In this document: piece after piece, positions 31,377 to 32,336 of the stretch
How the letters are laid out: each line of letters starts with the position of its first letter
Numbering within the stretch: the stretch's first letter is position 1
Source: a virus
Lineage: Duplodnaviria; Heunggongvirae; Uroviricota; Caudoviricetes
Virus record (IMG/VR): IMGVR_UViG_2529293060_000009
Reading direction: 5' to 3' (one strand)
Length of the DNA: 46,993 nt
The notes under the pieces: model-generated
Seen by the model: the letters and a program-made list of their open reading frames with translations, nothing else
What the model was told of the DNA's origin: nothing
The model's database searches: none
Program-made: the position numbers and the translations under genes

Positions 31377-32336
31377 TTAATTCACCATCAGTCTTAGAGC
31401 CAGTTCTTCCGGATAGGGATCGAAGTAATTCTGTGTAAGCAAGTAATCATTAGGATACTCACCCAGATAATGCTTCAGCAGAGTCAACGGCGCAAGAAGA
31501 GGCAATGTGCCAAAGCGATAGTTAAGTATAACCTCGCTCAACTCTTTACGCTGGCGTGTACTTAAGTAATTACTAAAATACCCCTGTATATGCATCAGCA
31601 CATTCGTGTGATTTTTACGTGATGCTGGTTTTCTGAGAATCGCCATCAGATTATCACGATACACCTCAAAGTATGATTCAAGGTCCGCCCACTCGTGTAT
31701 TGCAGCCACAAATGGTCCCATATCTTTATAGCCTGCCTGGCTATGCGCCAACAACTGAAGCTTATAACGACTATGAAAAGCTAATAACTCTCTTCTTGAT
31801 AATTTCTCCTTGTAAAGGTGATTGAGCTCATGCAAAGCAAAAACTCTTTCAATAAAATTCTCACGAAGCACTGGATCATGTAATCGCCCATCCTCTTCAA
31901 CCGGTAGCCAGGAAAACTTTTCCATCAAAGTGCTCGTAAATAGTCCCACTCCATCTTTACGACCTCGATTACCATTTTCATCATAGACACGCACGCGCTC
32001 CATGCCACAGCTGGGAGATTTAGCACAAACCACAAACCCCGATACATCCTTTAATTTGTCCATATAAGAACGACTAAACTCTGTCATTCTCTCTGTCACA
32101 TCCTCATTCTGGTCGTGGCTGAAACACATCCGTATATTTCCTTGCTTCGAGCGCACAAGTCGTAGAGCAGGACGCGGAACTGGCAGCCCTATAGCCATTT
32201 CCGGACATACTGGTCTGAATGTTACCCATTCCACTAATTTGTCCATTAAAAAGTCATCTCTTTTGTGACCACCATCAAAACGAACAGCAGAACCGCCCAA
32301 ACAACCGCTGATCCCAATCACAGGTTTTTTTATCAT
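31377..32336 (-). CDS. YbgA-like protein (DUF523 / DUF1722 two-domain protein)
   Basis: 319-aa ORF. N-terminus (MIKKPVIGISGCLGGSAVRFDGGHKRDDF) and later segments (..NVLMHIQGYFS..) parallel my recollection of E. coli YbgA. Confidence 0.7.
   Translation of the reverse strand: MIKKPVIGISGCLGGSAVRFDGGHKRDDFLMDKLVEWVTFRPVCPEMAIGLPVPRPALRLVRSKQGNIRMCFSHDQNEDVTERMTEFSRSYMDKLKDVSGFVVCAKSPSCGMERVRVYDENGNRGRKDGVGLFTSTLMEKFSWLPVEEDGRLHDPVLRENFIERVFALHELNHLYKEKLSRRELLAFHSRYKLQLLAHSQAGYKDMGPFVAAIHEWADLESYFEVYRDNLMAILRKPASRKNHTNVLMHIQGYFSNYLSTRQRKELSEVILNYRFGTLPLLAPLTLLKHYLGEYPNDYLLTQNYFDPYPEELALRLMVN

Follow-up and report, generated by a model that had tools for sequence, protein, structure and literature searches.

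The gene at positions 31377-32336 (minus strand) of the viral DNA analysed here, a stretch of 46,993 nucleotides that we call the window, very likely encodes the [4Fe-4S] tRNA 4-thiouridine (s4U) desulfidase RudS and is carried as cargo of a lambdoid prophage. The assignment is made from the sequence. An intact ORF of 319 codons occupies exactly this interval, its translation is matched over the full length by the phage protein family phrog_3275, and it has 91.8% amino-acid identity to RudS_vir, the gp66 protein of Escherichia phage 1H12. The name RudS for the fusion of a TudS domain to DUF1722, and the characterisation of the family, come from Jamontas et al. (2024, NAR, PMC11417400), who described a [4Fe-4S] enzyme that takes the sulfur off 4-thiouridine in tRNA and whose DUF1722 is a tRNA anticodon-arm binding domain. 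Because the family, its chemistry and a phage ortholog 92% identical to the window protein are published, the enzyme type is already known, and the exact rudS allele of the window is already annotated in many genomes; the enzymology is settled and the identification itself adds little. The gene and its two domains are positioned as follows.

31377-32336, minus strand: rudS, coding for a 319-amino-acid TudS-DUF1722 fusion, predicted [4Fe-4S] tRNA 4-thiouridine desulfidase (ORF, Pfam, identity to RudS_vir, phrog_3275)
31890-32318, minus strand: TudS/DUF523 catalytic domain, residues 7-149 (PF04463, residues read in the sequence, AlphaFold2/Foldseek, PDB match)
31410-31763, minus strand: DUF1722 domain, residues 192-309 (PF08349, identity to YbgA, all-helical in the model)

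Domain architecture and catalytic residues

A Pfam search confirmed both domains proposed in the first-pass annotation of this DNA, each over its complete profile: PF04463 ("2-thiouracil desulfurase", formerly DUF523) at residues 7-149 (E = 5.8e-40; profile positions 1-141 of 141) and PF08349 (DUF1722) at residues 192-309 of the same polypeptide (E = 9.4e-40; positions 1-117 of 117). The same annotation had called the gene a full-length YbgA paralog. The homology to YbgA is confined to the C-terminal half, where the NCBIfam YbgA equivalog NF007549 covers residues 161-315 of 319 and scores 189.1 bits, below its cutoff of 237 bits. Since E. coli YbgA consists of DUF1722 only, "full-length YbgA-like" is a misnomer for what is a TudS-DUF1722 fusion. 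Thiouracil desulfuration, a nucleobase modification to which DUF523 had been linked, has to give way to an action on tRNA s4U, the substrate of the fusion family as judged from the 92%-identical phage ortholog. Rare homologs are longer, P0002 (403 aa) and P0006 (500 aa), with extra domains among them (GGDEF, PF00990; DUF3833, PF12915); the P0006 call seems to have merged the gene with an upstream DUF3833 gene of the kind found in Citrobacter.

The three cluster ligands Cys12, Cys44 and Cys110 are present in the window protein, at the positions given for RudS_vir and RudS_ST (Table 1 of PMC11417400). Glu46, Arg55, Ser107 and Ser109 correspond to Glu51, Arg60, Ser111 and Ser113 of RudS_KT when mapped by a constant offset from the cysteines and not by alignment with the RudS_KT sequence; RudS_KT mutants at these four residues had lost all activity (PMC11417400). 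All seven cluster and catalytic residues are invariant in an alignment of 13 homologs (A1). Across 31 homologs (A3), no variation was seen at C12, C44, E46, R55, S107 or C110, and at least 90% have Ser109. Ser239 and Arg240, invariant as well, fit the tRNA-binding Ser243 and Arg244 of RudS_KT by a +4 offset only.

In the AlphaFold2 model (mean pLDDT 76), the N-terminal domain is alpha/beta and the C-terminal half helical. Foldseek matched the modelled N-terminal domain to the TudS crystal structures 6z92 and 6z96 with a probability of 1.00 and a target-normalised TM score of 0.65-0.67, and found no solved structural counterpart for the helical C-terminal half. TudS is also the sole PDB relative of the window RudS by sequence.

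The cargo slot between Q and the lysis genes

Read on its minus strand, the window is a Qin/lambda-like prophage. Its order from high to low coordinates is a DUF968 gene, the late-gene antiterminator gene Q, the cargo, the lysis genes and then the terminase, head and tail genes. Within the slot, Q is followed by a tR'-like terminator, a Blc-type lipocalin gene in antisense, rudS, the gene of an AraC-like regulator and the holin gene. The features bordering rudS are the following.

34522-34914, minus strand: late-gene antiterminator Q (Pfam Phage_antitermQ, E = 8e-51)
34400-34423, minus strand: hairpin of 9 pairs plus T-run, ~100 nt downstream of Q (terminator scan; also present in the uninterrupted locus L003)
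33842-34366, plus strand: Blc-type outer-membrane lipocalin gene (Pfam Lipocalin_2; NCBIfam Blc subfamily, 312.6 bits against a 267-bit cutoff)
31291-31311, minus strand: weak terminator-like hairpin, 66 nt past the rudS stop codon (scan, consensus match only; also present in L003)
30257-30979, minus strand: AraC-type regulator, YdeO/GadX-like, 33% GC (Pfam HTH_18; NCBIfam best match YdeO, below cutoff)
30167-30188, minus strand: strong terminator-like hairpin, past the cargo and ahead of the holin gene (terminator scan)
28511-30150, minus strand: lysis cassette with holin (29851-30150), lysozyme (29005-29538) and Rz-like (28511-29008) genes (Phage_holin_2_1, Phage_lysozyme, homologous loci)

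The lipocalin gene points away from rudS, antisense to the phage late operon; the slot ends with the lysis cassette. The hairpin at 34423-34400 appears to occupy the position expected for tR'. The start annotated for the AraC-type gene is probably the ATG at 30970. Similarity of its product was established only to YdeO/GadX, below the NCBIfam cutoffs, and the regulator may group with the prophage acid-resistance regulators PatE, PsrA and PsrB. Elsewhere in the window, Rfam matches above the gathering score were obtained for the DicF sRNA (45455-45506, plus strand), the sok antitoxin RNA (36855-37029, minus strand; the prophage also has hok/sok), a cspA-type thermoregulator leader upstream of the prophage cold-shock gene (27888-28305, minus strand) and the IS009 sRNA (3343-3541, minus strand), all of them consistent with a Qin-like prophage.

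The description of the cargo region as low in GC was borne out: rudS has 43%, the AraC-like gene 33% and the spacer between them 31%, against 49% for the whole window. The cargo genes (33-43%) thus differ from the lysis and structural genes (~50%). The gene is true cargo and not a chromosomal segment taken along at an attachment end: it lies within the phage, with Q on one side and the lysis genes on the other. Capture of a chromosomal segment by imprecise excision is excluded because the same arrangement recurs in phages, E. coli genomes and IMG/VR loci. Further points against it are that rudS is internal to the prophage and sits in the same slot of isolated phages, that the K-12 chromosome holds no rudS besides the unrelated ybgA locus, and that synonymous sites are saturated between phage rudS (43% GC) and its nearest chromosomal homolog, the Citrobacter gene (54.5%). 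Position between Q/tR' and lysis genes, dispensability and atypical composition, the traits of a lambdoid late-operon moron, are all found for rudS. Related Q-lysis regions without this cargo hold other genes, for example ompC-type porins (H153-H156).

An insertion sequence interrupts the slot upstream of rudS:

32459-33768, minus strand: IS3-family, IS629-like insertion sequence of 1310 bp (Pfam rve/HTH_Tnp_1; boundaries by alignment to uninterrupted loci)
33388-33714 and 32501-33400, minus strand: its orfA and orfB, with an ALIL frameshift pseudoknot (Rfam)
32337-32458, minus strand: the 122 bp that remain of the original rudS upstream region, holding the ribosome-binding site GGGGGAGG (sequence; alignment to uninterrupted loci)

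The cargo gene had been placed between the AraC regulator and IS629. The AraC gene indeed lies downstream and an IS upstream, but the latter is only IS629-like: its left end, the stretch of IS included in a 241-bp junction query, is ~89% identical to the O157 IS629 and 99-100% identical to other copies labelled "IS3 family". Plasmid-borne copies of the full 1310-bp element reach 99.3% identity. The element went in 122 bp ahead of the rudS start codon, and a target duplication, GTT, borders it on both sides (32456-32458 and 33769-33771). Of 79 viral loci, 77 do not have it and retain a lipocalin-rudS spacer of 192-193 bp; a search of the 5,426 complete E. coli genomes did not find its exact junction with the upstream region. 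The IS is therefore a later, simple insertion and no boundary of the cargo block; given its own duplication and the IS-free loci elsewhere, it is uninformative on how the cargo was acquired, and the proposal that cargo and IS629 arrived as a block falls. A second copy at 43501-44810 has the same direction, a one-base difference and its own AAC duplication. The two copies are independent simple insertions: delivery of the cargo by IS or as a composite transposon was rejected on account of the separate duplications (GTT, AAC) and of a cargo that is IS-free in nearly all other loci. The pair brackets ~9.7 kb with the lipocalin gene, Q, the DUF968 gene, hok/sok and replication genes, and in direct orientation it is a ready substrate for deletion by recombination. 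The copy next to rudS adds 1.3 kb between Q and rudS and could alter rudS expression in this strain.

The spacer of 397 bp between rudS and the AraC-type gene (31% GC) contains a terminator-like hairpin and promoter-like hexamers, which suggests that each gene may form a unit of its own in the lysogen; as both face the same way downstream of Q and of the tR'-like hairpin, they may be read through jointly after induction. Terminators and promoters found by the scans are consensus matches of a kind that occurs at background frequency. This applies to the promoter-like site at 31329-31302, a consensus match only, which overlaps the weak hairpin (31311-31291). Consensus scans of the conserved 192-bp region upstream of rudS gave no clear sigma-70 promoter above background, and Rfam, at gathering thresholds, gave no known RNA element in the AT-rich spacer. 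Control by LexA was considered and discarded: no CTGT-N8-ACAG box lies near the cassette, and the single match in the window, at 27285, is at chance level.

Distribution of rudS and selection

The first-pass annotation saw in the gene an unusual item for a phage to carry. Deposited phage genomes have it rarely (12 full-length matches among 50,697 records), but in E. coli it is common: 1,136 of 5,426 complete genomes have it. Of these 1,136, 1,064 retain at least 80% of its length in one piece, and the arrangement as a whole, scored as at least 80% of a 3.7-kb probe, is found in 981 of the 5,426. Gene order and orientation, with the lipocalin gene (-) following Q and opposed to RudS (+), AraC (+) and holin (+), are the same in 70 of 80 IMG/VR loci, in two isolated phages (1H12, IdasGreatGrand) and in every E. 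coli locus examined, whether of the 100%, 98% or 92% allele class. The most constant neighbour of rudS is the lipocalin gene (79 of 80 viral loci), followed by Q (97-100% conserved and linked to rudS in 77) and the downstream AraC-type gene (72). The latter is sometimes replaced by IS1, and its product diverges faster than RudS (75% versus 92% identity to the 1H12 proteins).

The two main allele clades of prophage rudS are separated by a dS of 0.29 with a dN/dS of 0.11-0.14. This ratio indicates that purifying selection has preserved the gene during its residence in phages. Constraint is similar on both halves of the protein, as DUF1722 is 73% and the catalytic domain 77% identical to the Citrobacter protein.

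The closest relatives outside E. coli are the chromosomal RudS proteins of other Enterobacterales, which have 319 residues and 70-76% identity (Citrobacter, Serratia, Klebsiella, Enterobacter, Pectobacterium, Salmonella). The statement that E. coli lacks RudS, made in the RudS paper (PMC11417400) and in a 2026 review, is true for K-12 and for BL21(DE3), which has a 147-bp remnant, and not for the species. In Nico21(DE3) (L006, NZ_CP053600.1, positions 5001-5147), a strain derived from BL21(DE3), the first 147 bp of rudS are found in the Qin prophage, cut by IS3. The 2024 study overexpressed RudS in BL21(DE3) (PMC11417400). With an intact, selectively maintained prophage rudS in ~20% of complete E. 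coli genomes, the UVA and s4U physiology of laboratory strains may not hold species-wide.

Possible roles and comparison with known systems

In the mechanism we propose, the N-terminal TudS domain would hold the [4Fe-4S] cluster on three cysteines, the free iron of the cluster would bind the sulfur of 4-thiouridine, and uridine would be the product. Docking of tRNA by the DUF1722 domain would make s4U8 (and s4U9) in tRNA the substrate, and not free thiouracil. The gene is a "moron" of the late operon, co-oriented with late transcription, and from its slot and orientation we infer that it should be transcribed by Q-modified RNA polymerase after induction; it may also have a promoter of its own in the lysogen. 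The outcome to be expected is a lower s4U content of host tRNA. Since s4U8 is the chromophore for near-UV light, and its crosslinking stalls translation and triggers the stringent response, less of it should reduce the delay of growth or translation caused by UVA.

The timing of expression and the benefit to phage or host are inferred steps of this scheme. On them depends a tentative and rather doubtful reading, in which RudS would be a timed eraser, made by read-through from pR' under Q or expressed in the lysogen, that spares phage late protein synthesis or the lysogens from sunlight. With s4U8 stripped from the tRNA, UVA accompanying SOS-inducing UVB could no longer cause the crosslinks that bring on the stringent response and halt the synthesis of phage late proteins; in another version, lysogens would tolerate more sunlight outside the gut. 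A benefit under UVA is known only for the overexpressed RudS of P. putida (RudS_KT), which shortened the growth delay from ~105 to ~60 min, and the light-responsive MerR/photolyase context typical of chromosomal RudS is absent at the prophage locus. If the timed-eraser reading were true, about one fifth of E. coli strains would hold a phage-encoded manipulation of the host tRNA epitranscriptome. The fixed place of the gene in a Q-dependent late operon leads to the hypothesis, addressed by no paper in the literature searched, that a temperate phage may reprogram a host tRNA modification during induction.

Three other explanations of the gene were weighed. The Pfam family name and the TudS fold would suit an enzyme of nucleobase salvage or detoxification that acts on free 2- or 4-thiouracil or on 4-thio-UMP, as stand-alone TudS does. 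In a uracil auxotroph, the lag on 4-thiouracil was shorter with RudS_vir than with any other RudS variant (PMC11417400), from which some free-base activity can be deduced. However, no RudS variant supported growth as TudS did, none did so on 2-thiouracil, and all of them lowered tRNA s4U, which stand-alone TudS did not (PMC11417400). In addition, DUF1722 has many invariant columns and is constrained like the catalytic domain (see above), which fits a function that needs both domains. Salvage is thus improbable as the role of the phage enzyme.

A weapon or counter-weapon in phage-host conflict, for instance by stripping s4U so that host tRNAs are destabilised or by evading a tRNA-directed defence, would agree with a place among late genes. 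It would also agree with literature in which loss of s4U lowers tRNA-Tyr and tRNA-Ser of V. cholerae via the degradosome, with a milder effect in E. coli. Nevertheless, the conflict role raised in the first-pass annotation found no support and is quite improbable: RudS, the AraC-like protein and the lipocalin have no PADLOC match (E <= 0.01), so that a role in a defence system was rejected; the neighbourhood has no partner toxin or nuclease; the remaining cargo genes are of stress type (Blc lipocalin, YdeO/GadX-like regulator); and no paper tying RudS to phage biology was found in the literature searched. A neutral or decaying passenger of a degraded Qin-like prophage, suggested by the presence of two IS copies, one of which lies close upstream of rudS, and by other strains in which rudS is disrupted by IS1 or truncated by IS3 (e.g., BL21(DE3) derivatives), is most improbable for an intact ORF that is 100% identical to alleles in uninterrupted loci, that evolves under the purifying selection described above and that most genomes retain in one piece.

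RudS_vir (H3V29_gp66) is the closest characterised protein, like the window RudS in its 319 residues and in Cys12, Cys44 and Cys110. Its locus has the same slot, with Q, lipocalin, RudS, an HTH protein and holin. It belongs to a different allele clade, with 26 amino-acid differences from the window protein, its neighbouring regulator is only 75% identical to the AraC-like protein, and its locus does not have the IS629-like element found 122 bp upstream of the window copy. Overexpressed RudS_vir lowered tRNA s4U in E. coli, and it was among the less active orthologs although well expressed; desulfuration of tRNA s4U was shown in vitro with RudS_KT (PMC11417400).

Chromosomal RudS of enterobacteria, such as Salmonella ORF319/STM1389 (RudS_ST) and Citrobacter braakii P0007, share length, architecture and invariant catalytic residues with the phage protein. 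Their genes have ~54% GC and lie in clusters of light-responsive type or beside a MerR regulator, whereas phage rudS has 43% GC and lies in a late operon beside an AraC-type gene. The C. braakii gene ends a cluster coding for SnoaL, SDR, amine oxidase, DUF1365, CFA-synthase-like, DUF2878 and DUF3833 proteins, which we take to resemble clusters linked to light-responsive regulons.

Stand-alone TudS (DUF523Vcz, PDB 6Z92-6Z96) has the fold and the three-cysteine [4Fe-4S] site of the RudS N-terminal domain; it differs by its size of ~150-166 aa and by its substrates, free thiouracils and 4-thio-UMP instead of tRNA. The window protein, with 319 aa and a fused DUF1722, does not belong to that type. 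A TudS-only homolog with 31% identity over the N-terminal domain is encoded by the 66.7-kb Pseudomonas phage Y10 (OQ572411.1, 54151-54579), so that phage carriage of the fold extends beyond coliphages. K-12 YbgA (b0707) resembles the other half of RudS, its DUF1722 being 49% identical over 152 residues (window residues 164-315). It differs by its 169 aa, by the lack of a TudS domain and by the company of the photolyase gene phr, upstream of which ybgA sits, and its overexpression left tRNA s4U unchanged (PMC11417400). A search by tblastn for a decayed TudS domain upstream of K-12 ybgA found none; if YbgA came from RudS, the N-terminal half must have been wholly removed. In MG1655 (L010, 4093-5511) the gene is directly downstream of an H-repeat transposase gene (ybfD) and of the RhsC region.

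Lambdoid phages carry morons between Q and the lysis genes, as illustrated by stx in Stx phages and by lysogenic conversion genes of the bor/lom type. The window cargo is like them in its foreign GC content, its slot from Q/tR' to the lysis genes, its sense of late transcription and the terminator-like hairpins around it. Unlike stx, it brings together a tRNA-modification eraser, a lipocalin and a regulator, with no toxin.
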